DNA of 39,694 nt from a virus, in the IMG/VR virus record IMGVR_UViG_3300045988_158434, positions 1 through 39,694 of that record; one strand, written 5' to 3'. Position numbers and translations under genes: made by a program. Each line of letters opens with the position of its first letter. Position 1 is the stretch's first letter. This document shows, piece by piece, positions 1-39,694 of this stretch. The notes beneath the pieces are model-generated. The model saw only the letters and a program-made list of their open reading frames with translations, did no database searches and was not told the DNA's origin.

Positions 1-510
1 GTAGTCGCCGAGTTCGCAGTCGTCGCCGAGTTTGCAGTAGTTGCCGAGTTCGCAGCATTCGCCGAGTTCGCAGTCGTAGCCGAGTTTGCAGTAGTTGCCG
101 AGTTCGCAGCCGTCGCCGAGTTTGCAGCCGTAGCCGAGTTCGCAGCCGTAGCCGAGTTCGCAGTCGTAGATGAGTTTGCAGTCGTTGCCGAGTTCGCAGC
201 CGTTGCCGAGTCTGCAGTAGTTGCCGAGTTCGCAGTAGTCGCCGAGTTTGCAGCCGTCGCTGAGTTCGCAGCCGTAGCCGAGTTTGCAGCCGTCGCTGAG
301 TTCGCAGCCGTAGCCGAGTTTGCAGTCGTAGATGAGTTTGCAGTCGTTGCCGAGTTTGCAGCCGTTGCCGAGTTTGCAGTAGTTGCCGAGTTCGCAGCCG
401 TCGCCTACCTCAATCCCTCTTTGGGCAAATTCTTCCTCTAATTCGGAAATGTTGGTATACTGAAAAGCTGCCCAACCTATCCCATTGACTTGCAAATAAA
501 CAGTTTTCAT
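1..510 (-). CDS. N-terminal part of the wrap-around gene for Cys-periodic hexapeptide-repeat protein A (253 aa total; continues at 39391..39639)
   Basis: ATG (reverse complement) at 508-510. Translation MKTVYLQVNGIGWAAFQYTNISELEEEFAQRGIEVGDG is followed by 22 in-frame 18-bp units giving the hexads C[E/K/R]LG[N/D/Y][Y/G/D]. The ORF is open to position 1 and is not in the ORF track because it crosses the window edge. Confidence 0.6.
   Translation of the reverse strand, partial: MKTVYLQVNGIGWAAFQYTNISELEEEFAQRGIEVGDGCELGNYCKLGNGCKLGNDCKLIYDCKLGYGCELSDGCKLGYGCELSDGCKLGDYCELGNYCRLGNGCELGNDCKLIYDCELGYGCELGYGCKLGDGCELGNYCKLGYDCELGECCELGNYCKLGDDCELGDY
2..397. repeat. 22 tandem 18-bp units (5-nt variable spacer + gccgagttYgcag) inside gene A
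   Basis: Direct reading of the sequence. Units differ only at the 5-nt spacer, at ttc/ttt/tct, and twice at gccgag to gctgag or gatgag. Confidence 0.9.
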
Positions 511-18331: not shown

Positions 18332-19771
18332 ATGAAATTCAGAGCTGTCGACATACCCAATCTGATTTATCAGATACTCCGGCCCAATTATGCCGTCACA
18401 TACGGGGACGAAAAGACGCTGCCGGCCCTCAATCAGACGTACAAGTTCCTGCTGGCATGCCTTTATCCGCTGCAACCCAAATGGAACGAATACGACGCGC
18501 TGAGGCGGAAGTATTACATGATCGCATCGTGCGAGCCGAACATCAGCAATGTTTCCAATGTCCTCAATCATCTTTTCGGGCAATACGGAGAGATCATCAT
18601 CTCCAATTCGAGCCTGAACCAGATGTACCTGTACGATTCGTACCCCGACGACGAGTCGAAACAAGTGTACCTGTATACCGAGGGAAGCGAAAACGCCCCG
18701 GTCTACTGGGGATTTCAGGGCGCTACGTCCAACGAGACTATCGTCAGCGTTCCCGTCGAGCTTCAGTACAGCGGAGCTCTCATCTATAACGCCGTATCCG
18801 TCCCGGGAGGACCTACTATCGCCATAAGCGACAAGACCGCCTACATAACCAATAACAACTGGCTATCCTATAAAACGGTCGTTCTGCCCAACAACGCGAG
18901 CGATACGGCGCTCTACAAGAGTATTACCTACTCAATCAAAGGATCGGACCAGACCCGGCCTATCATCGCTATCGGGGACGGCATATCGGCTATGTCCTTC
19001 GATATGGGCGAGACATGGAAGGCGGTCGATTTTCCGGAAGGGGACTACACGAAAGTCGTCGGCAGCTACCTGTCGAATGTGTCGATAGCCAACCACTACG
19101 CCATTGCCATTGGGGACGGGCTGCAACCGATGGCGATGTATCTGGACCTTCTGAACGGGACTCAAACTTGGAAACCGCTCGAAGGAATCGGCTCATCCTA
19201 TACATCGCTGTGCCCGTACAAAGACGGATTCGTTTTTATGAACGCTTCCCAAATGGAGCTCGTCGAGTTTGACAATAACTACCAAATCGTCAACTCGTCC
19301 GTCAAATCGCTCCCCTATGGACTGTATTACGATTGCGCAGCCGATTCTACGGGGACTCGTCTCGTATTCGTCGGCAAGGGATCGGCCTATGCGGCATCCC
19401 CCGACTACGATCCTGTCGCCTCGTCCTCTCCCATTCTGCCGGAATACGTATGCAAGTCCGTTACCTACGTTCCGCAGGACGGGTCGTTCCGCACATTTCC
19501 CTTCTACCGCTCTATGTTCGTCAGCAAAGACAACGGAAACACGTGGAGCATGCAGGAAATAGAGGGAATAGAGAAAGGCTCCTACCATACCATATACGGC
19601 ACGACGCAGGGATTCGGACTCGTAGGCAACGGCCAGATGTACTTCCAGAATCTGTCGGACGGGACCATCCAAACGAACGACGCGCCCATGTCCGATGTGT
19701 GGTGGGACTTCCTCGCAACGCTTAACTCGCTCATAATATACGGAATCAAATACACCATTAAAACATATTGA
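18332..19771 (+). CDS. baseplate / fibre-attachment protein
   Basis: 479 aa, between the gpJ-like gene and the fibres. Confidence 0.35.
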   Translation: MKFRAVDIPNLIYQILRPNYAVTYGDEKTLPALNQTYKFLLACLYPLQPKWNEYDALRRKYYMIASCEPNISNVSNVLNHLFGQYGEIIISNSSLNQMYLYDSYPDDESKQVYLYTEGSENAPVYWGFQGATSNETIVSVPVELQYSGALIYNAVSVPGGPTIAISDKTAYITNNNWLSYKTVVLPNNASDTALYKSITYSIKGSDQTRPIIAIGDGISAMSFDMGETWKAVDFPEGDYTKVVGSYLSNVSIANHYAIAIGDGLQPMAMYLDLLNGTQTWKPLEGIGSSYTSLCPYKDGFVFMNASQMELVEFDNNYQIVNSSVKSLPYGLYYDCAADSTGTRLVFVGKGSAYAASPDYDPVASSSPILPEYVCKSVTYVPQDGSFRTFPFYRSMFVSKDNGNTWSMQEIEGIEKGSYHTIYGTTQGFGLVGNGQMYFQNLSDGTIQTNDAPMSDVWWDFLATLNSLIIYGIKYTIKTY

Positions 19772-19772
19772 C

Positions 19773-21101
19773 ATGGCACTCGACCCCATCTACGATATGC
19801 TATTTCAGGACGGCACGGGCAATCCCGTGTTCATTACGGACCTGTCCAATCTGCCGCGTCAGATAAACTACCTGAAAGCCGCGATCAATCTGTTCGGCCA
19901 GAACATCGCCATACTGCACGGCTTCGACAAGAACGAGGACGGCACGTATACTCCCGGTATCATATTATATAAAGGTGTTATGTACTCCTATCCCGGGGAG
20001 AGCATTCCCGCCGGGTCGTACCTGCACAGCCGGGAAATACTGTACGGAGAACGAGTGGCTGAAAACGGCGTAATATACAACGCCTTCAAACGCTACGAAT
20101 TTGTCGCCAACGATGTGGACACGGGCGACGATCTGATTACCTCGGAGCCACTGACCGACGACTATGTGATGAAGCTCAAAAGCGCTCCTATCGGCCCTCA
20201 GATGATTGTAACCGACATGCTCAAGGACAAATCGGTTACATCGGATAAATTAGCCGACGGCGTTATCCCGGGAGCTACCCCGCCGACCGGTCCTGCCGGC
20301 GGCGATTTGGCCGGGACCTATCCTAACCCGACTATCGGCGACGGAAAGGTAACGACCGACAAGATTGCCGACGAGGCCGTGACCTCGGAGAAATTGGACC
20401 CCGATGTGCCGGGAGATATTCTGAACGGGATGATTACCAAAGTAAGCGACTTCAACAGCGCTCTTACTAACCGCTTATTCTATGCTCCCAGCTCAGCGGC
20501 CAATAAGCCTCTTACTGCCCTCTGCTCTTTTGTCGGAATTACCTTTTCCAATAGTTTCGACGTCACACCTTCCGCTGCAACCCAAATCGCCATGCCGTTG
20601 GATTGGGTGGGAGGCTCTCCATGGGGGAATAATACTCCTCCTTTGTTCATTAGGAACAATCGCGGCTACCCTTTGGATAATTGGAGCACATGGAAATGCG
20701 TCGCAGAATTTTTCCCGAACAATTTCGCTTCTCCCACCCAGTCTCTTACCCGAAAATTCAACGGCAGACCTGTCTTTTACCAGTATAAGTCGGCCGCGGC
20801 TTTCAACGTAACTACTTTGGGTACCGTCGAACTCGTGGACGACATGACCGGGAAGCATCTGATCGGCATAGAAGGATATCTGACCGGCCAATATGAGGAT
20901 AACGCGTCGGGAACCGGCACTATTATCGGCATGGAAATCCCACTCACCGGCGGAATGTCCAAGTATGTAGGCGAGACCAATATGGAGATTACGGCCTACA
21001 CGTATGAGAAGAACGACAAGCTATACATGAACATAACCACATCTTCAGGCCGGCAGGCCACGTTCACCTACCATATCGTAATGAAGTTCGACTACATATA
21101 A
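19773..21101 (+). CDS. tail fibre protein 1
   Basis: Its roughly 140-aa N-terminus is homologous to that of 21112..23595. It carries one copy of the GGDLxGTYPNPTIG-KVTTDKIAD motif. Confidence 0.55.
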   Translation: MALDPIYDMLFQDGTGNPVFITDLSNLPRQINYLKAAINLFGQNIAILHGFDKNEDGTYTPGIILYKGVMYSYPGESIPAGSYLHSREILYGERVAENGVIYNAFKRYEFVANDVDTGDDLITSEPLTDDYVMKLKSAPIGPQMIVTDMLKDKSVTSDKLADGVIPGATPPTGPAGGDLAGTYPNPTIGDGKVTTDKIADEAVTSEKLDPDVPGDILNGMITKVSDFNSALTNRLFYAPSSAANKPLTALCSFVGITFSNSFDVTPSAATQIAMPLDWVGGSPWGNNTPPLFIRNNRGYPLDNWSTWKCVAEFFPNNFASPTQSLTRKFNGRPVFYQYKSAAAFNVTTLGTVELVDDMTGKHLIGIEGYLTGQYEDNASGTGTIIGMEIPLTGGMSKYVGETNMEITAYTYEKNDKLYMNITTSSGRQATFTYHIVMKFDYI

Positions 21102-21111
21102 ATCTACCTCT

Positions 21112-23595
21112 ATGGCACTGAAACCCATACGCGAAATGCAATACGCCGAGAATATCGGCAATCCGGTATTTATAACCGACTTGGCCGTTTTGTCTCAGAA
21201 TATAGTAGAGCTCAAGGCCGCTATCAATATGTTCGGAAAGACTACGGCCATTATCTACGGCTTCGACAAAACGGAAGGCGGATATACTCCCGGCATCGTA
21301 CTCCATAACAAGCAGCTATATTCCTATGCTGCGGGGGATGTCATTCCTGCCAATACCTATCTGCACTCGGTCGTTCAGCAGACCACGCCGCGCATATTGG
21401 AGAACGGCTCCACATTCAATGCGTATGTCGAATATACGTTTATCGCCAACAGCACATCCACGGGCGACGACCTGATTACCTCGGAGCCACTGACCGACGA
21501 TTATGTCGCCGAGCTCAAGAATGCCGCGCAAGGTATTCCGCCCATAACTACCGATATGATCGCCGACGGAGCCGTGACAGCCGCAAAGATCGCAGACGGG
21601 GTTATTCCTGATGTTCCGAGCTCCCTGCCTCCGTCCGGCGCTGCCGGTGGCGATTTGACCGGGACCTATCCTAACCCGACTATCGGCACCGGGAAAGTGA
21701 CAACCGCAAAGATCGCCGACGGAGCCGTGACAGCCGCAAAGATCGCAGACGGGGTTATTCCTGATGTTCCGAGCTCCCTGCCTCCGTCCGGCGCTGCCGG
21801 TGGCGATTTGACCGGGACCTATCCTAACCCGACTATCGGCACCGGGAAAGTGACAACCGCAAAGATCGCCGACGGAGCCGTGACAGCCGCAAAGATCGCA
21901 GACGGGGTTATTCCTGATGTTCCGAGCTCCCTGCCTCCGTCCGGCGCTGCCGGTGGCGATTTGACCGGGACCTATCCTAACCCGACTATCGGCACCGGGA
22001 AAGTGACAACCGCAAAGATCGCCGACGGTGCCGTGACAGCCGCAAAACTGGCTGAACAGTATATTGTGAACCGGGGTGCTATTGCTAACTTGAATAACGC
22101 CACGACTTACGGATTCTATACCTACGATGCAACTACGCAGAACACGCCTACTTCTTACGGCAGCGTCATTGTCGTCGAAGGAACCGGGAGATCAGGAAAT
22201 TGGATACAGTTGGCCTTAGGATATTCTGCGGGCAATGTCAATCCGTCCGTTTTTGTCCGTTTCCGGCAAAGTCTGGAATCTTGGAGCGACTGGGTTAAAG
22301 TATGGAAATCCAATGATTTCAATCCGGACGACAAATTCGGGTTCAGCGCCGCTCAGCTCTCGGATTTGAACAATGCCCCGAACAATGCCTTCTTTGTCGG
22401 CGCACACAACGCGGCGAACGCTCCGGTTGCAGATAGTTGGTGCAATGGATTTACTATCGCTTATGGCAATAACCCCGATTTCCGCAAACAGTTCTGCTAT
22501 GCAGGCGACAAGTGGTGGACAAGAGGTCGAAACGGTACAACGTGGTCCAGTTGGAGCCAGATTTGGGATTCGGGAAACCTCACCCCGTCGTCTTTTGCTC
22601 AAACCAAAAAGGAGATCTTTCCCAGCGGCGGAATAGACAACATTACGGATTCAGATTTTACTGGGAATATACAGGCGCGTTTTCCGGAGAGAGAATATTC
22701 AAGCATCTGGCAGGGGAAGGATTTTATAGGTACGATTCTGCAACTCAAGTTGCGGGACTATGCCAACGAGCAATCCTTGATGTATCGTGGAAGCAAAACA
22801 AAAACATGGCTGAGGGTTTGGGACTCGGGTAACTTCAATCCATCCGATTATTTGTCGAAAGAGAATACAACGGTCTACGTGCCGACCGGAGAATACAACC
22901 CGGCTACAAAAGGGTATGTCGATTCGGCTGTGGAGAATGGAAGTATGAAGAAAGTTAATACCACTAATCTGAATACGCTTATTTCAAAGGGTACGTGCTT
23001 TTTCCAATTTGCCGCATCGACGACGAACGCTCCTATGCCTCAAGGAGGCGGAGGACTTCAAATAGTACTTACCGATAAAATCATACAGTTCGTTACCATT
23101 TTCTACTCGACATCATATGCCGGCCCTTCTTTCTATCGTACTTCCAATACGGCTTCAGCATCCACATTCTCCCCGTGGAGTTGCTTTGCGGAAAACAGCG
23201 ATTTCGGACAGAACGTCTATTTTGAACAACAATTAGACGCGACGCATTTCAACGACGCACCCGTTGTCAAGAAGCTCGTCAAAGGATCGTATACCAATAA
23301 ATACGGGCCTGCAACTGTTGCACTGGATAACTATGCCTCGACTCAATTCCCGGGAACGTACTCCCAATATGCGCCTATCGCTTTTCGCGGGTACGCTAAG
23401 TTCACGAACTATTCCACCAAAGCGACTTTGGCTATCGTACCCGTTAACAGCCAAAGTAATAATAACTATGCATTTTTTACCTATGTCAATCCGTCATCGA
23501 TATACCAAGTTATGGCCAATTTCACAGGCGGTTCGGCAACTGTTCGGGAACAAGTGGATTACTGGGTAGAAATAACCTATGGCAAAGTGGTATAA
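21112..23595 (+). CDS. tail fibre protein 2 (827 aa) with a 3 x 51-aa perfect tandem repeat
   Basis: Shared N-terminal domain. Repeat unit TAKIADGAVTAAKIADGVIPDVPSSLPPSGAAGGDLTGTYPNPTIGTGKVT x3. Long divergent C-terminal domain. Confidence 0.6.
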   Translation: MALKPIREMQYAENIGNPVFITDLAVLSQNIVELKAAINMFGKTTAIIYGFDKTEGGYTPGIVLHNKQLYSYAAGDVIPANTYLHSVVQQTTPRILENGSTFNAYVEYTFIANSTSTGDDLITSEPLTDDYVAELKNAAQGIPPITTDMIADGAVTAAKIADGVIPDVPSSLPPSGAAGGDLTGTYPNPTIGTGKVTTAKIADGAVTAAKIADGVIPDVPSSLPPSGAAGGDLTGTYPNPTIGTGKVTTAKIADGAVTAAKIADGVIPDVPSSLPPSGAAGGDLTGTYPNPTIGTGKVTTAKIADGAVTAAKLAEQYIVNRGAIANLNNATTYGFYTYDATTQNTPTSYGSVIVVEGTGRSGNWIQLALGYSAGNVNPSVFVRFRQSLESWSDWVKVWKSNDFNPDDKFGFSAAQLSDLNNAPNNAFFVGAHNAANAPVADSWCNGFTIAYGNNPDFRKQFCYAGDKWWTRGRNGTTWSSWSQIWDSGNLTPSSFAQTKKEIFPSGGIDNITDSDFTGNIQARFPEREYSSIWQGKDFIGTILQLKLRDYANEQSLMYRGSKTKTWLRVWDSGNFNPSDYLSKENTTVYVPTGEYNPATKGYVDSAVENGSMKKVNTTNLNTLISKGTCFFQFAASTTNAPMPQGGGGLQIVLTDKIIQFVTIFYSTSYAGPSFYRTSNTASASTFSPWSCFAENSDFGQNVYFEQQLDATHFNDAPVVKKLVKGSYTNKYGPATVALDNYASTQFPGTYSQYAPIAFRGYAKFTNYSTKATLAIVPVNSQSNNNYAFFTYVNPSSIYQVMANFTGGSATVREQVDYWVEITYGKVV
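21571..22040. repeat. 3 perfect tandem copies of a 153-bp unit (plus a partial fourth) inside fibre gene 2
   Basis: Unit starts at 21571, 21724 and 21877 and the copies are identical. Confidence 0.9.
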
Positions 23596-23606
23596 CAATC
23601 AGCACA

Positions 23607-24224
23607 ATGGAATACATCGCAGCGATCATAGCGGCCATCGGCACCATCATAACCGCATGGTTCAAATACAACCAGTACCGACGGGACAAGATGACCGACC
23701 TAAAGATATCCCAAATAAAGCAGGATATGTCGGAAACTTCCCTGCGTCGGGTAGACAATTCGGCAATCGTGTTCGGCGAACTGTGGGACATACTGTACAC
23801 GCTGGATGCCGACAGAGTATATATCATCCAGCCTCACCCGCTGGGCAACGAGGCTTACGTTTCGATCTACTTCGAGGTGAAGCGTAAAGGCATCGACGGG
23901 ATGAAACAATATATCCATGACATAAGCATGTCGGACATGCCTAAATTCTGTGCGGACCTGAACCGGAATCCGTACATCCACATATCCGACATCGAGACGC
24001 AAATGGACGATATGTATGCCCGTTCGCTCTTTTCCTCTCACGGCAGCTCCATATTAGGGATATACCGTATGAGCGACAACCAGCACGACTGGGTCGGCTC
24101 TATTGTTTGCGAACTGAGAAAAGATTCCAGCATCTCAGAATCTTTTCTCAGAAGCAAATTGCACGTAATCTCAAGAAACATTCAGTATATTTTGCCCAGA
24201 TATATTGGCTCTCACACTAATTAA
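23607..24224 (+). CDS. membrane-anchored hypothetical protein (N-terminal transmembrane helix)
   Basis: MEYIAAIIAAIGTIITAWF... Inserted between the fibre-related genes. Confidence 0.4.
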   Translation: MEYIAAIIAAIGTIITAWFKYNQYRRDKMTDLKISQIKQDMSETSLRRVDNSAIVFGELWDILYTLDADRVYIIQPHPLGNEAYVSIYFEVKRKGIDGMKQYIHDISMSDMPKFCADLNRNPYIHISDIETQMDDMYARSLFSSHGSSILGIYRMSDNQHDWVGSIVCELRKDSSISESFLRSKLHVISRNIQYILPRYIGSHTN

Positions 24225-24235
24225 ACTTTATTGCT

Positions 24236-24715
24236 ATGGTTAAGAAAATCACCAAATCCGATCTGCCTCCTATCCCGAGCATCGACAGGATGGCCAACAA
24301 AATCAACGAAAACTTCGAGTCCATCGAAGGGGGCGGCGCAACTCCGAGCGGCGCTGCCGGTGGCGATTTGACCGGGACCTATCCTAACCCGACTATCGGC
24401 ACCGGGAAAGTGACAACCGACAAAATCGCCGACAAAGCCGTGACCGCTGCAAAGCTGGCTGACGGGGTTATTCCGAATGTTCCGACTTCTCTGCCTCCGT
24501 CCGGTTCTGCTGGTGGCGATTTGACCGGAAGCTACCCGAATCCGACTATCGGGAACGCAAAAGTTACTCTGGCAAAACTCGCGTCGGACGTTACCGCCAA
24601 ACTGGTTACACCGCAGACCACGCCCACATGGGGTGCATCGGACACGGCCGAAGGCGTGCAGGCGAACCTGGTCCTGCTGGCAAACGCTCTGAAAACCGCC
24701 GGTATTCTGAAATAG
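24236..24715 (+). CDS. small fibre-motif protein (two copies of the GGDLTG(T/S)YPNPTIG motif)
   Basis: Shares a 70-bp exact DNA match (24350-24419) with each repeat unit of fibre 2. Confidence 0.45.
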   Translation: MVKKITKSDLPPIPSIDRMANKINENFESIEGGGATPSGAAGGDLTGTYPNPTIGTGKVTTDKIADKAVTAAKLADGVIPNVPTSLPPSGSAGGDLTGSYPNPTIGNAKVTLAKLASDVTAKLVTPQTTPTWGASDTAEGVQANLVLLANALKTAGILK

Positions 24716-24717
24716 CC

Positions 24718-25167
24718 ATGCTTCTATCTCTGAGGCGAATCTATTTCGCGCCCACTTATACCATCGGGCGTTTAAGCATCCCGTCGGCATCCTTCGAGTG
24801 CGATACGCTGGAAGATACCGACCGGGATGCCAACGCCAATGGCGTATTCGACGGTCAGGAAGTCAAGATATACGGCAAGACGGCTATCCCTTACGGTCGC
24901 TATCGAATCGCCATGACCCAGTCGCCCAAGTTCTCGCCCCGGTACGGCGGACGAAATGTCCCCCTGCTGCCGGATGTGCCTCACTTTTCAGGAATACTTA
25001 TCCATTCGGGGAACACGCCGGCCGACACGGAAGGTTGTATCTTGGTCGGAGAGAACAAGGTAAAAGGACAGGTCATCAACTCCCGGGCTACCCTGTTCCG
25101 CCTGCTCGACATTCTCGACGAGGCCGAATCCCGGGGCGAAGATATTTACATCACGATTCGGAAATGA
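24718..25167 (+). CDS. YkuD/L,D-transpeptidase-fold protein (putative peptidoglycan-active enzyme)
   Basis: IPYGRYRI...ILIHSGNTPADTEGCILVG fits the YkuD His...Gly-Cys catalytic signature. The start is the internal ATG at 24718. Confidence 0.4.
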   Translation: MLLSLRRIYFAPTYTIGRLSIPSASFECDTLEDTDRDANANGVFDGQEVKIYGKTAIPYGRYRIAMTQSPKFSPRYGGRNVPLLPDVPHFSGILIHSGNTPADTEGCILVGENKVKGQVINSRATLFRLLDILDEAESRGEDIYITIRK

Positions 25168-25466
25168 AAATCATCTACAACTCCCTGATCCCGTTTCGCG
25201 GATATAAGGCCATGATGCTGTTCGGGGTCATATTCGCGCGCAAAAAGTTCAAGCCCCTGAGCGCCGTTACCGTCAATCACGAATCGATCCATGCGGCCCA
25301 AGCCAAAGACTGTCATGGATATTTCCCGTATTACTGCCGATATATCTGGCAATGGATATGCCACGGCTACAAGGGTAATCCTTTCGAAATAGAGGCCAAA
25401 ACCCATGAACGGGATTTGAACTACCTCTACAACCGAAAGCCCGAGGCGTGGCGCGACATGATGTAG
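25164..25466 (+). CDS. small HExxH protein (candidate minimal zinc metallopeptidase)
   Basis: 100 aa with VNHESIHAAQ and a downstream EIEAKTHE. The start is the internal ATG at 25164. Confidence 0.3.
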   Translation: MKIIYNSLIPFRGYKAMMLFGVIFARKKFKPLSAVTVNHESIHAAQAKDCHGYFPYYCRYIWQWICHGYKGNPFEIEAKTHERDLNYLYNRKPEAWRDMM

Positions 25467-25504
25467 ACATTCGCAGCGGTTCTTTGACATATTGGAATTA
25501 CCGA

Positions 25505-25535
25505 GAACCGGGGGGATCATTGCGCCCCCCGGTTC
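25505..25535. other. perfect 11-bp GC stem-loop (gaaccgggggg-N9-ccccccggttc) at the end of the late operon
   Basis: Direct reading. No U-tract follows. Confidence 0.5.
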
Positions 25536-25781
25536 ATAATAGCTTGCGTACTCCACCAACAAATGCCTGGAAATTATAAGTTTGAGTTATACTCCGCCTG
25601 ATTCCATAAATATATAAAAACAGGGCGTGAGATAAAATTTCCTATGTTTGTATCGACATATGAATGGCGTTAGCTATTGTTTTGGGTAAAGAAAACGACC
25701 AATTTTATTTAGCCCCAAGAAACAAGTTGTGATTTGATGTAGAAAGCGGTAATTCCAATATTCGGAGTTACCGCCTTTTTT

Positions 25782-25817
25782 ATGCCCGGGCGGATAGGTT
25801 CGGGCATTTTTATTTTA
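25782..25817 (+). terminator. hairpin atgcccg-N12-cgggcat followed by ttttatttta
   Basis: Inverted repeat plus T-tract. It lies only 8 nt upstream of the 25825 start, so it could act as a leader or attenuator. Confidence 0.4.
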
Positions 25818-25824
25818 CTGAAAC

Positions 25825-26295
25825 ATGAAAAACGTTGTTATAGCTTTAGCCCTTATTGCAGCCGCATTTCTGCTGGGGCGACGGAGTGTGAAGCCGGAGA
25901 TCGTCAAGATCCACCGGACGGACACGGTGGTCGTGCGCGACACGGTCCGGGAAACTGTCCTCGTTCCCAAAGTCCGCTACCTGACCCGTGTCGATACGGT
26001 ACTTTTGCCTGTCCCGGGCGATACGGTGGAAGTCCCGGTACTGGTCCCGATTTCCCGGAAAGTATACGAAGGGGAGGATTACCGCGCCGTCGTGTCCGGT
26101 TTCCGCGCGTCGCTCGATACGCTCGATATTTTCCGAAAAACGCAGACCGTGACGAATACGGTCGTCCAGCGGGTCGAGGTTCCCGGCAAACCCAAGCGCT
26201 GGGGAATCGGTGTGAGCGCCGGATATGCCCTCACGCCGCAAGGCGTGAAACCTTATATAGGAGCCGGAATCAGTTACTCTTTTATCACATTCTGA
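25825..26295 (+). CDS. secreted/outer-membrane-like protein (signal peptide; C-terminal ...GAGISYSFITF)
   Basis: N-terminal hydrophobic signal and a C-terminal aromatic Phe as in outer-membrane beta-barrels. Candidate spanin or outer-membrane component. Confidence 0.35.
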   Translation: MKNVVIALALIAAAFLLGRRSVKPEIVKIHRTDTVVVRDTVRETVLVPKVRYLTRVDTVLLPVPGDTVEVPVLVPISRKVYEGEDYRAVVSGFRASLDTLDIFRKTQTVTNTVVQRVEVPGKPKRWGIGVSAGYALTPQGVKPYIGAGISYSFITF

Positions 26296-26296
26296 T

Positions 26297-26629
26297 ATGC
26301 CGAAAATATTCGTTAAACCGCTGACCGTAAACCGAGCATGGCAGGGTAAGAGATTCCGCACCTCCATGTATGATGCCTATACGACGGAGTGCCTATTGAA
26401 GCTGCCCGACATAGTGCTGCCCGAACCTCCATACGAAGTACACTATGTATTCGGGCTATCCACTTCTTTGGCCGACTGGGACAATCCGATCAAGCCCTTT
26501 CAGGATATATTGCAGAAAAGGTACGGATTCAACGACAAGGACATTTTCAGGGCCGTTGTCGAAAAAGTCAAGACACACAAAGGGGAGGAATTCGTTTATT
26601 TCGACATTAAGAACCTCACCGTACCATGA
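26297..26629 (+). CDS. rusA: RusA-family Holliday junction resolvase
   Basis: LTVNRAWQGKRFRTSMYDAY... and ADWDNPIKPFQDIL...NDKDI motifs. Confidence 0.65.
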   Translation: MPKIFVKPLTVNRAWQGKRFRTSMYDAYTTECLLKLPDIVLPEPPYEVHYVFGLSTSLADWDNPIKPFQDILQKRYGFNDKDIFRAVVEKVKTHKGEEFVYFDIKNLTVP

Positions 26630-26631
26630 AA

Positions 26632-27075
26632 TTATATAGATGAGCTTCCTTTCATGTCACCCAACAGCGAATTCAGGTGCATCACCCAAAATCTCAACTG
26701 GCTTGTGATATTGAGCAGATCGTTCTCGGTAGTCGGGTCGAATTTATCGGCATAGCATCCTTCATGGACGAGCGCGATGATTTTGTCTATCTCATCGCGT
26801 GTTTTTGCTACCATGTCCCATGTCGGCATGATTAATTTCTCGTCTTCCACTTTGGATTCAGAAATACACAACCCCATGCTGAACGGAGGAATCATTCTGA
26901 GCTGGCGGAATATCTCGCCCACCTTATCCGTCCCGTCGTCGAGTACCTTGTATATCTTATCGAACATTTTGTGCAGAGCCTCGTATTCGTGCCCTGTCAC
27001 CATCCAATGCCTTCCTTTCACATTGGACTTGGTTACCTGCATTGTAGCAAGTATCGTGTCTAATTCTTTCTCCAT
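26632..27075 (-). CDS. dps: Dps-like ferritin (DNA-protection-during-starvation family)
   Basis: NVKGRHWMVTGHEYEALHKMFDKIY and ...DDGTDKVGE match the Dps HW.V.G..F..LH and D-x3-E ferroxidase motifs. The track ORF begins with TTG; the ATG start at 27075 is used here. Confidence 0.6.
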   Translation of the reverse strand: MEKELDTILATMQVTKSNVKGRHWMVTGHEYEALHKMFDKIYKVLDDGTDKVGEIFRQLRMIPPFSMGLCISESKVEDEKLIMPTWDMVAKTRDEIDKIIALVHEGCYADKFDPTTENDLLNITSQLRFWVMHLNSLLGDMKGSSSI

Positions 27076-30303: not shown

Positions 30304-31188
30304 TTATCGACTTAATTTCTCGTAAGCGTTGATCGTCTCGAATATCCGCAGCGCTACCTGCGGCACTATGGCGTTGCCGTAGGCTTTGACGGATTCCCTG
30401 CACCATGCAGGAAAGGTAACTCCGTCCAATCCGGCGGAAAGCCCATCATCTCTGCTAAGAACCGGGGATTGAGTCGGAAACCCGCTCCAGTCCGGTATTC
30501 GTCGCTCCGCATAGCCGTTTTCACCATTCCGCCATCTCTTTTGGCCTGACTCGGCGGGAGTGAAACGTTCCTCGCGTCGTTGGCTGTCGGCGTATGCAGG
30601 AGCCGCATCGGCATGAAGACCGTCTTCCCTTTGACACATATCTTCAGACCCTGAGTCTGCTCGGTGGGCAACAAACCACACCCTGTCCCTGCGATGGGGA
30701 GCGTCGACACCGCAAGCCGGAAGTACGAACGGTTGGACTTCGTAGCCCTCATTTTCCATGTCAGAACACACCTGCTCGAAAACCAGTCCCTCCGACCAAT
30801 CAATAATTCCGGGAACGTTTTCGCCCACGACCCAGCGGGGACGAATCTCCCGAATAGCTCCAAGCATCTCCGGCCAGAGATAGCGGTCATCTCCCGTGCC
30901 TTTTCTCTTACCGGCGACGCTGAACGGCTGGCACAGCTACGGGAACCCTCCGGTAAGGACAATGTCCTCATTCCTCCAGAGGGTTCCGTATCGTTTTGAA
31001 AGTTCAACGTCAATTGTCTCATAAGTCAAGGTGTGTATATCATCGTGATGGTATGCTTCGGGAAAGTGATACTGTAGTACCCGCCGACAAAAATTGTCTA
31101 TTTCACAAGTAACGAGCGTCCTCCATCCCGCCCAATGCGCGGCGAGGGCAAATCCTCCTATTCCCGAAAATAAATCTATGTGTATCAT
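30304..31188 (-). pseudogene. C5-cytosine DNA methyltransferase in one reading frame, interrupted by a single in-frame TAG inside the catalytic PCQ motif
   Basis: Motif I DLFSGIGG (ORF 30937..31188) ends ...GGFP, then TAG (30934-30936), then LCQPFS...ENV...QPFVLPACGVDAPHRRDRVWFV...GNAIVPQVA (ORF 30304..30867). All parts are in the same frame. Confidence 0.6.
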
Positions 31189-31586
31189 TTTCTTCGTTCA
31201 ATTTGATGCCTTCGCGTGTGTTCCGCTTTTGGGAAGCAAACTAAATTATCCCGGCGATTATCGGATTTATCCCCGTTGATATGATGGACATCCCAACCGT
31301 CCGGTATATCGCATATTTCTTTTTCCCAAACGTAACGATGCATCAAACATCTGTCATCGGTAGTTAAAGCATAATAACCATGATTCCGCAGGGTGAATTT
31401 TTTGCCATCGTAAATTTGGTAGTCAGAAGGTGCAGGAGTTCGCAACTTTAACCCTCGCTTTTTGAATGCCTTATATACACATTGCCTTGTAACGCCTATG
31501 CTCTTGGCTGTTTCTGCCAACGACATCCCTTTTGCGTACATCTCGACATATGCCTTGTCGTATATTGAATTTCTATGCGCTCCCAT
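31185..31586 (-). CDS. HNH endonuclease with an N-terminal HTH
   Basis: HRYVWEKEICDIPDGWDVHHINGDKSDNRRDNL is an HNH motif; MSLAETAKSIGVTRQCVYKAFKK is an HTH. Confidence 0.7.
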   Translation of the reverse strand: MGAHRNSIYDKAYVEMYAKGMSLAETAKSIGVTRQCVYKAFKKRGLKLRTPAPSDYQIYDGKKFTLRNHGYYALTTDDRCLMHRYVWEKEICDIPDGWDVHHINGDKSDNRRDNLVCFPKAEHTRRHQIERRK

Positions 31587-33951: not shown

Positions 33952-34152
33952 TCAGTATTCTTTATCCAGTTTTTTCCGTATTCTCGCCGAAGGCAGGACG
34001 GGATATTGGGATATGTCGACAAACAGCACCCCATCTATATTTTCGGCTTTTATCTTTCCTAATGCTATTCTTTTCTTGACGCCGTTATAGGTTATTCCGG
34101 ACATCATGGCGTAAGTTTTCAGCCGGATCAGAACTTTCTCATCTTCCATCAT
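33952..34152 (-). CDS. small HTH protein (Xis/MerR-like)
   Basis: AMMSGITYNGVKKRIALGKI is a helix-turn-helix. Confidence 0.4.
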   Translation of the reverse strand: MMEDEKVLIRLKTYAMMSGITYNGVKKRIALGKIKAENIDGVLFVDISQYPVLPSARIRKKLDKEY

Positions 34153-34988
34153 TCATTCGTAATTTTTGCTACTATTTCGTCTACTTCCTTTTTTTCCGCC
34201 TCTTTGGCATCGACGCCATCCACATATATCGGATCGCAGGACTCTATGTCTTCGGAACTGGGAACGGATTGGTCGAATTTCAGCGCCGCCGTTATCTTGG
34301 GTTGCTGTTGGGGGTTGATCGGGCACCACTTTTTAATAATGCTTTTCAACACCGTCTTTTGCCCCATAGCTACGAAATCCGTTTGCCACAATCCATTCTC
34401 CCTGTAGAATGATTTGGAATACTTTGCCCCGTGAGTCTTGCATTCGTCCACCGTCATGTACAGATAGAAGTCCGCACCGGTCATCAGCTTCAGGTAAGAG
34501 ACGAATCCGTTCAGTATCGACCTGTCCGGATTGTTTAGATTGAATCGCATGTCGCCCGTAAAGGGATTTATTGCCTCGATGTCCCCTTCGTACACGTTAG
34601 CCACATTGATACGCGCTACGTTGCCCGTCCTGTGGGCGAGTTGCACATATCCGTTCTTCATTATCTGGAACTGCGCGACTCCACCGTAGGGAACCAATGC
34701 CGCCTGTCCCAGATTGGTATCTATCGACAGATTCGTATACGCCGCAACCAAAGAGGACCGGATAATCGATGTGGGATCGGCTTTCATCAGCAGCTTATTG
34801 TTTGTCGTGGCCGACAATATCGACTGCATAAAAGAGGGTGCGTACTCCCCCAACATCATCTCGAACCGCTTTTTGGTTTCCTCGTGGAACAGCGTTTTTT
34901 TTAGCTGCGTTAAAAACGATTGAGAGGCTATATACGGAGATCTCGACCTTCCCATCGAGGCCCGTGCCAATTCTTTTTCAGTTTCCAT
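34149..34988 (-). CDS. recT: RecT-family single-strand annealing recombinase
   Basis: AALVPYGGVAQFQIMKNGYVQLAHRTGNVARINVANVYEGD is the RecT core. Confidence 0.75.
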   Translation of the reverse strand: METEKELARASMGRSRSPYIASQSFLTQLKKTLFHEETKKRFEMMLGEYAPSFMQSILSATTNNKLLMKADPTSIIRSSLVAAYTNLSIDTNLGQAALVPYGGVAQFQIMKNGYVQLAHRTGNVARINVANVYEGDIEAINPFTGDMRFNLNNPDRSILNGFVSYLKLMTGADFYLYMTVDECKTHGAKYSKSFYRENGLWQTDFVAMGQKTVLKSIIKKWCPINPQQQPKITAALKFDQSVPSSEDIESCDPIYVDGVDAKEAEKKEVDEIVAKITNE

Positions 34989-34993
34989 AGCCG

Positions 34994-36205
34994 TTATTTT
35001 AGCCCTAACTTGATCTTGATCACTTCGGCAATAGCCATGTACTGCCTTTCGAATTCATTTCCCTGATGTGTCTTTTTGACTTGTTCCTCGAACTCTTCAA
35101 TAGAACCCCGAAAGCATCCGCAGATGATTTCAACTTTCCCTGATTGAGTTTTATAGGCATGGGTGTGACGATTAGCAGACCCAAAACAATCAAATCCACA
35201 ATGTTCATTATTATTTGACACCTTAGCATCGCCGGACACCTGAGCATTGCCGGACACCTTAGCATCGCCGGACACCCAAGCATTGCCGGACACCTGAGCA
35301 TCGCCGGACACCTGAGCATTGCCGGACACCTGAGCATTGCCGGACACCCAAGCATCGCCGGACACCTTAGCATCGCCGCACACCTGAGCATTGCCGTACA
35401 CCTTAGCATCGCCGTACACCCAAGCATCGTCGTACACCTTAGCATCGCCGGACACCTGAGCATCGCCGTACACCTGAGCATTGCCGTACACCTTAGCATC
35501 GCCGTACACCCAAGCATCGCCGGACACCTGAGCATTGCCGGACACCTGAGCATCGCCGGACACCCAAGCATTGCCGCACACCCAAGCATCGCCGCACACC
35601 TGAGCATTGCCGTACACCTTAGCATCGCCGCACACCTTAGCATTGCCGTACACCTTAGCATCGCCGGACACCCAAGCATTGCCGGACACCTTAGCATCGC
35701 CGGACACCTTAGCATCGCCGGACACCTGAGCATTGCCGGACACCCAAGCATCGCCGGACACCTGAGCATTGCCGTACACCTTAGCATTGCCGTACACCTT
35801 AGCATCGCCGCACACCTTAGCATTGCCGTACACCTTAGCATTGCCGTACACCTTAGCATCGCCGTACACCCAAGCATCGCCGGACACCTGAGCATTGCCG
35901 GACACCTGAGCATCGCCGGACACCCAAGCATTGCCGCACACCCAAGCATCGCCGCACACCTGAGCATTGCCGTACACCTTAGCATCGCCGGACACCTGAG
36001 CATCGCCGGACACCTGAGCATCGCCGGACACCTGAGCATTGCCGCACACCCAAGCATCGCCGGACAGGTTATCTTCTTTTTCAATATACCCACCAAGATC
36101 ACCTACATCGGCATGCTTGATTTTACGCGTGCATTTGATTTGTAACAACTTAATACCAAACGCGTTGATTATAAATTTGTCCGTTAATTCGAAATGTTTG
36201 TCCAT
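34994..36205 (-). CDS. hexapeptide-repeat protein B: about 48 tandem G[D/N]A[Q/K/W]V[S/Y/C] hexads with N- and C-terminal caps homologous to protein A
   Basis: 403-aa ORF with a near-perfect 18-bp DNA array at 35215-36065. N-terminal ...INAFGIK...ADVGDLGG and C-terminal ...IICGCFRGSIEEFEEQVKK align with protein A's VNGIGWAAF...IEVGDG and IQIGCKKHTISEWQKHFRE. Confidence 0.6.
   Translation of the reverse strand: MDKHFELTDKFIINAFGIKLLQIKCTRKIKHADVGDLGGYIEKEDNLSGDAWVCGNAQVSGDAQVSGDAQVSGDAKVYGNAQVCGDAWVCGNAWVSGDAQVSGNAQVSGDAWVYGDAKVYGNAKVYGNAKVCGDAKVYGNAKVYGNAQVSGDAWVSGNAQVSGDAKVSGDAKVSGNAWVSGDAKVYGNAKVCGDAKVYGNAQVCGDAWVCGNAWVSGDAQVSGNAQVSGDAWVYGDAKVYGNAQVYGDAQVSGDAKVYDDAWVYGDAKVYGNAQVCGDAKVSGDAWVSGNAQVSGNAQVSGDAQVSGNAWVSGDAKVSGNAQVSGDAKVSNNNEHCGFDCFGSANRHTHAYKTQSGKVEIICGCFRGSIEEFEEQVKKTHQGNEFERQYMAIAEVIKIKLGLK
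35215..36065. repeat. about 47 tandem 18-bp units (gcatYgccgKacacc-YRa-) inside gene B
   Basis: Direct reading. Higher-order duplicated blocks are visible. Confidence 0.9.
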
Positions 36206-36574: not shown

Positions 36575-37504
36575 CTATTTAAATTTCAGCATTCTGTAAC
36601 TCGATTCTACCGTGCATTCGCTGACTATGTTCGGATATTTCAATCTCAGCATTTCCGTATCCAGCTTTTTGCGGCAATAGGATTTAAAGGTGGCGATAGT
36701 GGTTCCCTCGTACTCCATGCTGTCCTGCTCTCCGAATCTTAGGATCATCTCGCCCTCTATCTCCTTTTTCTCTCGCTCCAGTACCTTGATCGCCTTATTC
36801 AGTTTCCCCAGACGCTCGTACCTCGAAAACATATCTTTCCCTACCCTCACGATACCTTCCTTGCTCTCCGGGTATGTTTCCCGAATGTCCTGCGCAGTGG
36901 TAGGTTCCGGTTGTTCGCCCCCGATTATGTGCTTCTGAAACCAGTCGGTCGCCTTGCGCATATTCGTGAGCGTCCAATCTTTATCGAAAGTATAATGTCC
37001 GTATTTAAGCTCTTTTCTACCGTCGCAAATGACCAGAAAGGCGTTTTTTCGGCCCATCACGGCCATTTGAAACTGGACCTGCGCATACCACTCTTTCGGA
37101 ATGCTATCTGCGTCCATATCGTCTATTATTCGCTTCGTGTCTTTTATCTCCACCACCGGACGGTCCTCCCATTCCTGTTTGAATGCCTCCCGATCCGGCG
37201 AGCATTCCACGAAGTCCGGGAACTCGTCGTTGGTATACACATCGTATGATGCCGAGCGCTTTATAATCTCGCAACCGGTCTCGCTCTCGAACCATTTGGC
37301 AATCGCATCCTCCATGAATATCCCCCGGTGCATATTCGCGTTCATCTCATCGCTTCCCTTCGTCTTGCGCTCCCAATACTGCAAAGGCGTAACGTACTCG
37401 CTCAAGCCGAGTATTATCCCGAAATCCGAGCTGCCGAGAACCGGCCGGCTCTCCCTGCGCTCCAGCCATTCCGCTCTGGTTTTAAATGTCTCTTTCCGTA
37501 TCAT
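36575..37504 (-). CDS. YqaJ-like (lambda Exo family) recombination exonuclease
   Basis: VLGSSDFGIILGLSEYVTPLQYWERKTKG...NMHRGIFMEDAIAKWFESETGCEI...VEIK matches the YqaJ PD-(D/E)xK signature. Confidence 0.75.
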   Translation of the reverse strand: MIRKETFKTRAEWLERRESRPVLGSSDFGIILGLSEYVTPLQYWERKTKGSDEMNANMHRGIFMEDAIAKWFESETGCEIIKRSASYDVYTNDEFPDFVECSPDREAFKQEWEDRPVVEIKDTKRIIDDMDADSIPKEWYAQVQFQMAVMGRKNAFLVICDGRKELKYGHYTFDKDWTLTNMRKATDWFQKHIIGGEQPEPTTAQDIRETYPESKEGIVRVGKDMFSRYERLGKLNKAIKVLEREKKEIEGEMILRFGEQDSMEYEGTTIATFKSYCRKKLDTEMLRLKYPNIVSECTVESSYRMLKFK

Positions 37505-39390: not shown

Positions 39391-39694
39391 TTATTTCTGC
39401 TTGACATTCCACCTGCCGTGAAGTTTGGCAATAAGGTCTATATAAGACCCATATTCATCGATTTGCTCCTCAGAATAACCTTCAGCCTTCCCAATTTCGC
39501 GGAAATGCTTTTGCCACTCCGAAATAGTATGTTTTTTACAACCTATTTGGATAGCATCGTACCCCCAGTATGAAACGGAGTGCTGGGAGGCCGATATGAA
39601 TAATGATTTAGGTACTTTGCAGCCGTAGCCGAGTTCGCAGTAGTCGCCGAGTTCGCAGTCGTCGCCGAGTTTGCAGTAGTTGCCGAGTTCGCAG
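39391..39694 (-). CDS. C-terminal part of repeat protein A (stop TAA, reverse complement, at 39391-39393)
   Basis: Reading the - strand from the repeat units at the window end gives ...CELGYGCKVPKSLFISASQHSVSYWGYDAIQIGCKKHTISEWQKHFREIGKAEGYSEEQIDEYGSYIDLIAKLHGRWNVKQK*. The frame is continuous with the 1..510 segment once the 55-bp terminal overlap is collapsed. Confidence 0.6.
   Translation of the reverse strand, partial: CELGNYCKLGDDCELGDYCELGYGCKVPKSLFISASQHSVSYWGYDAIQIGCKKHTISEWQKHFREIGKAEGYSEEQIDEYGSYIDLIAKLHGRWNVKQK
39640..39694. repeat. 55-bp terminal redundancy identical to 1..55 (circular-contig overlap)
   Basis: A 55/55 exact match between the window start and end. A gene reads across the junction. 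Confidence 0.8.

Follow-up and report, generated by a model that had tools for sequence, protein, structure and literature searches.

Does a fibre locus built on identical blocks of DNA work as a switch of host range, or is it a place where recombination leaves structural variants behind? The locus lies in a viral DNA stretch of 39,694 nt (the window; positions 1 to 39,694 of IMG/VR record IMGVR_UViG_3300045988_158434) and consists of two adjacent tail-fibre genes, fibre 1 (F1) and fibre 2 (F2), a gene for a 205-aa protein, and a small gene, S. A preliminary description had seen in it a built-in mechanism of host-range variation. We conclude from sequence comparisons that it is probably a recombination-prone modular fibre locus generating standing structural polymorphism in the phage population. 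We do not regard it as a programmed reversible switch, because the deletion described below cannot revert alone, the resulting fusions are rare, and the F2 tip is invariant. The first 55 bp of the window recur exactly at its end (1–55 = 39640–39694), a terminal overlap that marks it as a circularised short-read assembly of what would be a complete phage genome of ~39.6 kb.

The preliminary description had reported a 70-nt block that is identical in the three repeats of F2 and in S. Exactly four exact copies were found, starting at 21637, 21790, and 21943 in the F2 open reading frame (ORF; 21112–23595) and at 24350 in the S ORF (24236–24715), and a match appeared in none of 100 shuffles. The full exact tract shared around the block is 71 nt. 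The block is the core of a 153-bp (51-codon, 51-aa) DUF5907 repeat; in F2, a 318-nt exact self-match at an offset of 153 makes 21558–22028 perfectly periodic, and the two units of S, at 24350 and 24503, are likewise spaced by 153 nt. From the F2 blocks to the S block, the distance is 2407–2713 nt, with the ORF at 23607–24224 in between. The window has six units in all; those of F2 and S recur every 51 aa. Exact identity between the single F1 unit and the F2 and S units extends over only 29 nt. Searches with PF19264 (DUF5907; gathering cut-off 27 bits) gave 32.8 bits for F2, 36.1 for S, and 17.3 for F1, and the F1 unit, though below the cut-off, aligns with an F2 unit inside a 57%-identical stretch of the two fibres. 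In a 43-sequence alignment, the columns of the core motif GGDLxGxYPxPxI were at least 90% conserved. Since the unit has a 51-codon period and a common reading frame in all three genes, all recombination products are in frame.

Identity among the units of the window array is 100%, synonymous sites included, against ~95% for the best match in another genome. Because synonymous-site identity within the array exceeds that between genomes, the DNA indicates recent duplication or conversion, not protein-level selection alone. Among deposited phages, tblastn with F1 and F2 found relatives for the repeat region only (30–37% identity), in tail-fibre-like proteins of T7-like cyanophages and of Marinitoga and Gordonia phages. 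Since it is matched in the tail fibres of unrelated phages, DUF5907 is, judging from these alignments, a widespread fibre-shaft module. F1, F2, and S also matched PHROG tail-fibre families (phrog_892, 4e-15; phrog_28766, 2e-12; both 'tail fiber protein'), with matches confined to the DUF5907 region.

F1 and F2 are 57% identical over ~224 aa (E 1e-73). Their paralogy, suggested earlier, was thus upheld, but the shared part is longer than the ~140-aa N-terminal domain first described, as it comprises that domain plus one unit from each fibre. The C-termini, previously called unrelated, are mostly so, with only weak knob-like similarity. F1 is near-invariant in relatives (92–100% identity in >120 clusters, nearly always 442 aa). 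F2 occurs in no fewer than 12 architectures, between 437 and 1083 aa long, and all of them end in the same tip. Upstream of that tip, F2 is a chain of ~80–90-aa knob modules, each ending W-x-S-G-N-F-N-P; in some relatives, a collagen-like G-X-Y shaft replaces the DUF5907 units. A second IMG/VR scan with the F2 anchor alone found no new architectures.

A comparison of fibre loci across related phages had been recommended in the preliminary description. In the IMG/VR and ENA contigs that we compared, the repeats were present and structural variants were found. Relatives are 96–98% identical to the window and collinear with it from 15001 to ~21750 and from ~22817 to 27000. They lose collinearity within the 153-bp array and, midway along F2, at a small number of module ends; the natural variants have breakpoints in the intragenic repeats. 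As anticipated, unit number differed: over 21+6 loci, it was 0–4 in F2, 1–2 in F1, and 1–3 in S, the S orthologues of 108, 159, or 210 aa having one, two, or three units. In one pair of relatives (L022 and L023), F2 is the same apart from one versus three units. Unit-level DNA comparison placed the F2 units and the first S unit in one mixed pool with best matches across loci: the first S unit of L011 is 99.1% identical to the first F2 unit of L014, and the best foreign match of the window's first F2 unit is the first S unit of L015 (95.4%). The last S unit always groups by position, as do F1 units across genomes except in L014, where F1 is partly converted, and in L015, where it has gained an F2-type unit.

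By their DNA identity, shaft modules are also recently transferred horizontally among unrelated phages. Knob module M5 of F2 is 94–96% nucleotide-identical to the fibre of an unrelated phage (L016–L018). Otherwise unrelated phages (L016–L018, L009, L010, L020, L021) carry a 735–956-aa fibre (e.g. L016 7062–9932) whose N-terminus and tip are different but which has one DUF5907 unit and knob modules that are 90–96% DNA-identical to window 21928–22932. The homology with these fibres, one of which is 955 aa long, begins at the DUF5907 unit.

The preliminary description had also predicted that recombination between F2 and S could delete about 2.7 kb, including the gene for a membrane protein. Such products exist as in-frame fusions in nine samples. 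A search with the F2 anchor plus repeats found proteins of 245 and 296 aa in which the F2 N-terminus is followed by one or two units and then by the S C-terminus (P0246, P0359–P0364, P0367, and P0368). Gene order in the fusion contigs is F1, fusion, DUF5675, and the distal part of F2, the 205-aa gene, and the S N-terminus are gone. These contigs, fetched in part and assembled with MEGAHIT at k 99–141 and with SPAdes, measure 37,589, 37,205, 37,130, 35,577, 31,892, 26,853, 8,037, 2,101, and 1,980 bp. A simulated crossover in the window's 70-nt block (first F2 unit with first S unit) deletes 2713 nt and yields an in-frame 296-aa ORF that is 96–99.3% identical to six of the natural proteins. The junctions occupy at least four different positions (GGDLTG/SYPNP, AEGVIP/NVPTS, the body of unit 1, and after two F2 units), and on this comparison the F2–S deletion events are therefore recurrent. 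The 205-aa gene is missing from the deletion variants (L040–L048) and, going by their gene content, is dispensable in them. A further product, in L019, is a single 509-aa fibre made of the F1 anchor (residues 1–133), an F2-type linker, a collagen-like shaft, and the F2 tip; its crossover site is a 60-nt block at the end of the anchor domain that is 88% identical between F1 and F2.

The AlphaFold2 model of S (predicted local distance difference test score, pLDDT, 73; predicted template modelling score, pTM, 0.28) is elongated, with confident units and helices at residues 16–28 and 138–154. It fits S being a short fibre-like protein whose C-terminus can terminate an F2 stub. A Foldseek search with this model gave no match in the PDB and none below E 0.01 in BFVD. 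The N-terminal helix of the 205-aa protein is hydrophobic (Kyte–Doolittle 17-residue mean 2.05 at residues 3–19). Homologues 39–51% identical to the protein occur in crAss-type phage cr52_1 and in BS-TP1, a 112-kb Bacteroides phage whose 51%-identical protein is named 'GAF domain-containing protein'. Pfam gave nothing meaningful for the 205-aa protein up to E 5, and a PDB sequence search gave no match.

The phage encodes RecT, as had been stated, together with a YqaJ-type exonuclease, the usual partner of RecT, and an ORF of hexapeptide repeats lies between the two genes. RecT/exonuclease pairs recombine short, diverged homologies 20–100 times better than RecA during lytic growth (PMC3945230). 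By analogy, the RecT/YqaJ pair is a likely catalyst of repeat recombination here. F1 and F2 share an N-terminal anchor and a DUF5907 shaft unit and carry different tips. In the mechanism that we propose, the near-identical unit DNA (between F2 units and between F2 and S, less so with F1) is a direct-repeat substrate for homologous recombination. The relatives show its products: units are gained and lost in each of F1, F2, and S and swapped between F2 and S, occasionally with F1. Crossover between F2 and S removes 2.4–2.7 kb, and what is left is F1 plus a stub of 245 or 296 aa in which one or two units connect the F2 anchor to the C-terminal helix of S. Crossover in the 60-nt anchor-end block joins the F1 anchor to the F2 shaft and tip, and F2 knob modules are shuffled, with the conserved W-x-S-G-N-F-N-P ends as boundaries. 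Adsorption may change with shaft length, with knob content, and when one fibre is lost.

Several points weigh against this reading. All variants come from short-read metagenome assemblies; some contigs end in the repeat (L002, L003, L008, L027, L038, L039) and others have 100-N gaps there (L024–L026). Single unit counts may be wrong, including the three of the window, which come from a short-read assembly and are uncertain from sequence alone. Fusions make up only a small minority (~11 of 19 sequences in the P0246 cluster, versus ~500 free-standing S sequences), and their scatter among full-length genomes was seen in a neighbour-joining tree that rests on a ~1-kb flank, possibly itself recombinant, and is weak evidence. 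Shaft length and knob content vary, but the F2 tip is invariant across all complete F2 examined, and because it never varies in this set, a host-range effect is not obvious. The domain assignments of F2 are sequence-based only, since its AlphaFold2 model (38-sequence alignment) reached a pLDDT of 34; a PDB sequence search with F2 gave no match. Host RecA or replication slippage are possible alternative agents.

Would selection maintain such a locus for the variants that it yields? If it were an adaptive contingency locus, the repeats and S would be maintained since their recombination gives host-range variants (bet-hedging), and S would be a spare in-frame C-terminal cap that keeps truncated F2 assembly-competent. 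The in-frame products, the recurrent junctions at four or more positions, and the phage's own RecT/YqaJ pair agree with this, as does the abundance of deletion variants, which dominate the assembly in several samples; the predicted C-terminal helix of S could cap a trimer. Within-array identity at synonymous sites, above that to any other genome, points the same way, but could equally reflect recent duplication. Retention of the repeats is explained by an obvious structural role alone, DUF5907 being in the tail fibres of unrelated phages. Moreover, deletions need a co-infecting donor to revert, the fusions are rare, and the host-range benefit is conjectural. We therefore regard an adaptive contingency locus as unlikely. 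The term "built-in" overstates the case, as the deletion is irreversible, invertase and reverse transcriptase were not found, and fusions are rare. A related scheme is distinctly unlikely: S would be kept as an in-frame "cap" for F2, unit recombination would shed the distal part of F2 together with the 205-aa protein, the stub would fill the anchor, and co-infection with full-length phages would restore the locus, giving a RecT/YqaJ-driven population toggle between two-fibre and one-fibre virions.

The variants might instead be artefacts, in which case the copy-number differences and both kinds of fusion would be short-read mis-joins and the real genomes would carry the full cassette. Besides the many contigs that stop in the repeat or have N-gaps there, recurrent ~21-kb Logan contigs suggest a systematic break at the locus, and two fusion contigs are short (L040, L041), one of them with low coverage (L040, cov 3.9). 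However, fusions also lie inside contigs of 27–37.6 kb, among nine samples and two assemblers, with junctions well internal, and the three longest (37.1–37.6 kb) are ~2–2.5 kb shorter than the 39.6-kb genome. In 11 full-length genomes, the longest exact F2–S match is 14–95 nt, below the MEGAHIT k of 99–141, and the alignable stretch of the 245-aa class does not exceed ~93 nt. Because the exact F2–S homology is shorter than the assembly k, we infer that the junction k-mers must come from real reads. Four different junctions, and the hundreds of member sequences of single-unit S (108 aa), likewise argue that mis-assembly is quite improbable as the source of the variants.

Polarity could also be reversed. 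The short protein (F2 anchor, unit, and S C-terminus) would then be the ancestral second fibre, and the common form would have arisen by insertion into its repeat of a cassette of knob modules, tip, 205-aa gene, and small-gene N-terminus. That cassettes move is suggested by the unit and knob modules 90–96% nucleotide-identical in unrelated phages (L016–L018, L009, L010) and by the homologues of the 205-aa gene in crAss-like phages. At least four junction positions and two fusion lengths speak for loss instead, as do the rarity of the fusions and their scatter among full-length lineages, and in the donor-type phage L016 neither an S-like gene nor a 205-aa gene adjoins the fibre; we consider an ancestral short fibre very improbable. 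A programmed tropism switch of the Mu G or P1 C inversion, shufflon, or diversity-generating retroelement (DGR) type, for which nothing speaks beyond the alternative fibre ends and the repeats, is effectively refuted: the repeats are direct, sizeable inverted repeats flanking the fibre ends were not found, the variants are indels and fusions rather than inversions or adenine-directed substitutions, and the ORFs scanned (some below ~150 aa were left out) yielded no domain of an invertase, integrase, or reverse transcriptase, so a DGR or invertase switch was rejected.

Read as a recombination-prone modular locus, the cassette has partial counterparts in known systems. In antireceptors of Streptococcus thermophilus and lactococcal phages, collagen-like repeats flank a variable region, according to the account of Duplessis and Moineau (2001) as cited in PMC5601072. 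There, too, as far as that account goes, short in-frame repeats separate domains and are regarded as points of module exchange and length change, and the collagen-like G-X-Y shaft of some F2 relatives is a further likeness to the collagen-repeat phages. Unlike in the S. thermophilus phages, the window repeat is a 51-aa DUF5907 unit that is present in three genes, leading to gene fusion and loss of intervening genes, and the F2 tip is constant, in contrast to the repeat-flanked variable region of the cited account. For T4 gp37, Tetart and colleagues in 1996 reportedly saw host range expanded when short-homology recombination duplicated a small adhesin domain in tandem. In both cases, recombination between short repeats alters, in frame, how many times a small fibre segment is present; in gp37, however, the segment is in the receptor-binding tip and its host-range effect is demonstrated, whereas the window units are in the shaft and known from sequence only.

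Adjacent paralogous fibre proteins with related attachment parts and different distal parts are also found in K1-5/SP6-type phages, which have dual tailspikes. The T5-like phage DT57C is of the same kind, with branched LtfA/LtfB fibres that are reported as two receptor-binding proteins on a shared anchor (PMC4728585). The present locus differs from both in that either tip is lost naturally by fusion, and F1 and F2 are known from their genes alone. Relaxed homologous recombination by Rad52-like/RecT recombinases is a source of phage mosaicism (PMC3945230). Like the phages of that study, this one encodes RecT and an exonuclease, has mosaic boundaries in short, partly diverged homologies (29–95 nt exact), and exchanges small gene fragments rather than whole modules. 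Unlike the phage–prophage exchange in Escherichia coli described there, the best-documented events here are intragenomic direct-repeat deletions and unit-number changes, for which the enzyme is inferred. As in Mu G, P1 C, and BPP-1 Mtd, the variation within one genome is concentrated in its tail-fibre genes. The changes in Mu G, P1 C, and BPP-1 Mtd are reversible or mutagenic and depend on an invertase or reverse transcriptase, neither of which was found in the window ORFs scanned. The principle of repeat-mediated fibre mosaicism is thus already known; new are the DUF5907 repeat, its spread over three genes, and the metagenomic evidence for the predicted products.

The cassette features and recombination genes are collected in Table 1. 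The fibre genes are encoded in a tail module adjoining baseplate genes: a baseplate hub (phrog_4930), a gpV-like OB domain, and a Baseplate_J-like protein are directly upstream, and a lysis-type module with DUF5675 and DUF6808 follows the cassette. This uncultured gut phage is probably contractile-tailed. Its host is probably Alistipes, because records labelled Alistipes ihumii and A. putredinis encode the same proteins (including P0356 and P0357), the assignment being based solely on these records. One of the contigs that carry the full cassette (L049; 133,934 bp, in ENA and NCBI) has it near one end and an F1 protein labelled A. ihumii, and another copy is in the 386-kb scaffold L023. No integrase was detected in the window; the context in L049 and L023 could be integrated, plasmid-like, or mis-binned. 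Megablast of the cassette DNA against deposited phages gave no match, and a scan of species-representative genomes with F1 and with the large terminase gave no relatives. Literature searches on 'DUF5907' returned no papers, and one on Alistipes phages with such fibres returned nothing relevant.

Table 1. Positions of the fibre cassette features and recombination genes in the window
Feature	Position	Strand	Basis or remark
F1, 442 aa: N-terminal anchor, one DUF5907 unit, knob-like domain, own tip	19773..21101	+	After baseplate genes
60-nt anchor-end homology block, F1 copy, GDDLITSEPLTDDYV	20120..20179	+	88% identical to F2 copy
Single DUF5907 unit of F1, GPAGGDLAGTYPNPTIGDGKVTTDKIADEAVTSEKL	20289..20396	+	Sequence comparison
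F2, 827 aa: anchor, three DUF5907 units, knob modules, constant tip	21112..23595	+	Gene position, similarity to F1
60-nt anchor-end homology block, F2 copy	21459..21518	+	88% identical to F1 copy 20120–20179
Tandem array of the 153-bp DUF5907 unit	21558..22046	+	TRF (Tandem Repeats Finder): period 153 bp, 3.2 copies, 99% matches
F2 first knob module, ends ...KSNDFNP	22047..22329	+	Collinearity with relatives breaks at ~22329
F2 knob module M5, 87 aa, ends WDSGN(L/F)(T/N)P	22330..22590	+	Present/absent in relatives
F2 knob module M7, 85 aa, ends WDSGNFNP	22591..22845	+	Module map
F2 linker and tip (module M2), ends ...VEITYGKVV	22846..23595	+	Constant in all complete F2
205-aa protein, N-terminal hydrophobic helix	23607..24224	+	phrog_38864, 5e-80, function not annotated
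S, 159 aa: 41-aa N-terminus with helix, two DUF5907 units, C-terminal helix	24236..24715	+	PF19264, 36.1 bits
70-nt block in S, identical to F2 units	24350..24419	+	Crossover site yielding the 296-aa fusion
RecT single-strand annealing protein	34149..34988	-	PF03837, 112.6 bits, E 2.3e-32
YqaJ-type exonuclease	36575..37504	-	PF09588, 71.9 bits

Other parts of the genome showed features of their own. The 479-aa ORF just 5′ of F1 (18332–19771) has weak BNR/Asp-box signals and relatives that are sometimes 482 aa, with an additional 'EGI' triplet repeat; its protein may be a further baseplate or receptor-binding component. An insertion hotspot lies at 25629–25726, between a 100-aa ORF after DUF5675 and DUF6808, where relatives have from 0 to ~4 kb of added genes between flanks that are 94–99% identical; the cargo includes tRNA_anti-like OB-fold proteins, Bro-N, and SocA_Panacea. 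A C-5 cytosine methylase fragment (30304–30867, minus strand) lies near an HNH_3/HTH endonuclease ORF (31185–31586, minus strand), and the methylase of relatives is either intact (282–316 aa) or split around the HNH gene. This arrangement suggests a methylase split by homing-endonuclease insertion. Between the RecT and YqaJ genes, the 403-aa ORF at 34994–36205 (minus strand), which is YdcK beta-solenoid/bactofilin-like, contains a tandem array of 47 copies of an 18-nt (hexapeptide) unit at 35217–36066. A second 18-nt tandem array of >22 copies runs across the circular junction (window 4–405 and 39619–39694).

Tail fibres set which bacteria a phage infects, and phages of gut Bacteroidales are hard to culture. 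One shaft repeat common to three genes makes this fibre cassette a recombination hotspot whose recombinants are visible in public metagenomes, and the known junction sequences give exact, testable predictions. The locus is also a warning that such fibre loci are systematically broken or mis-assembled in short-read viromes. The DUF5907 unit and the W-x-S-G-N-F-N-P knob ends are natural module boundaries for fibre engineering. If host range does differ between fusion and full-length forms, the cassette would be a simple model of recombination-based tropism variation without dedicated switch enzymes.

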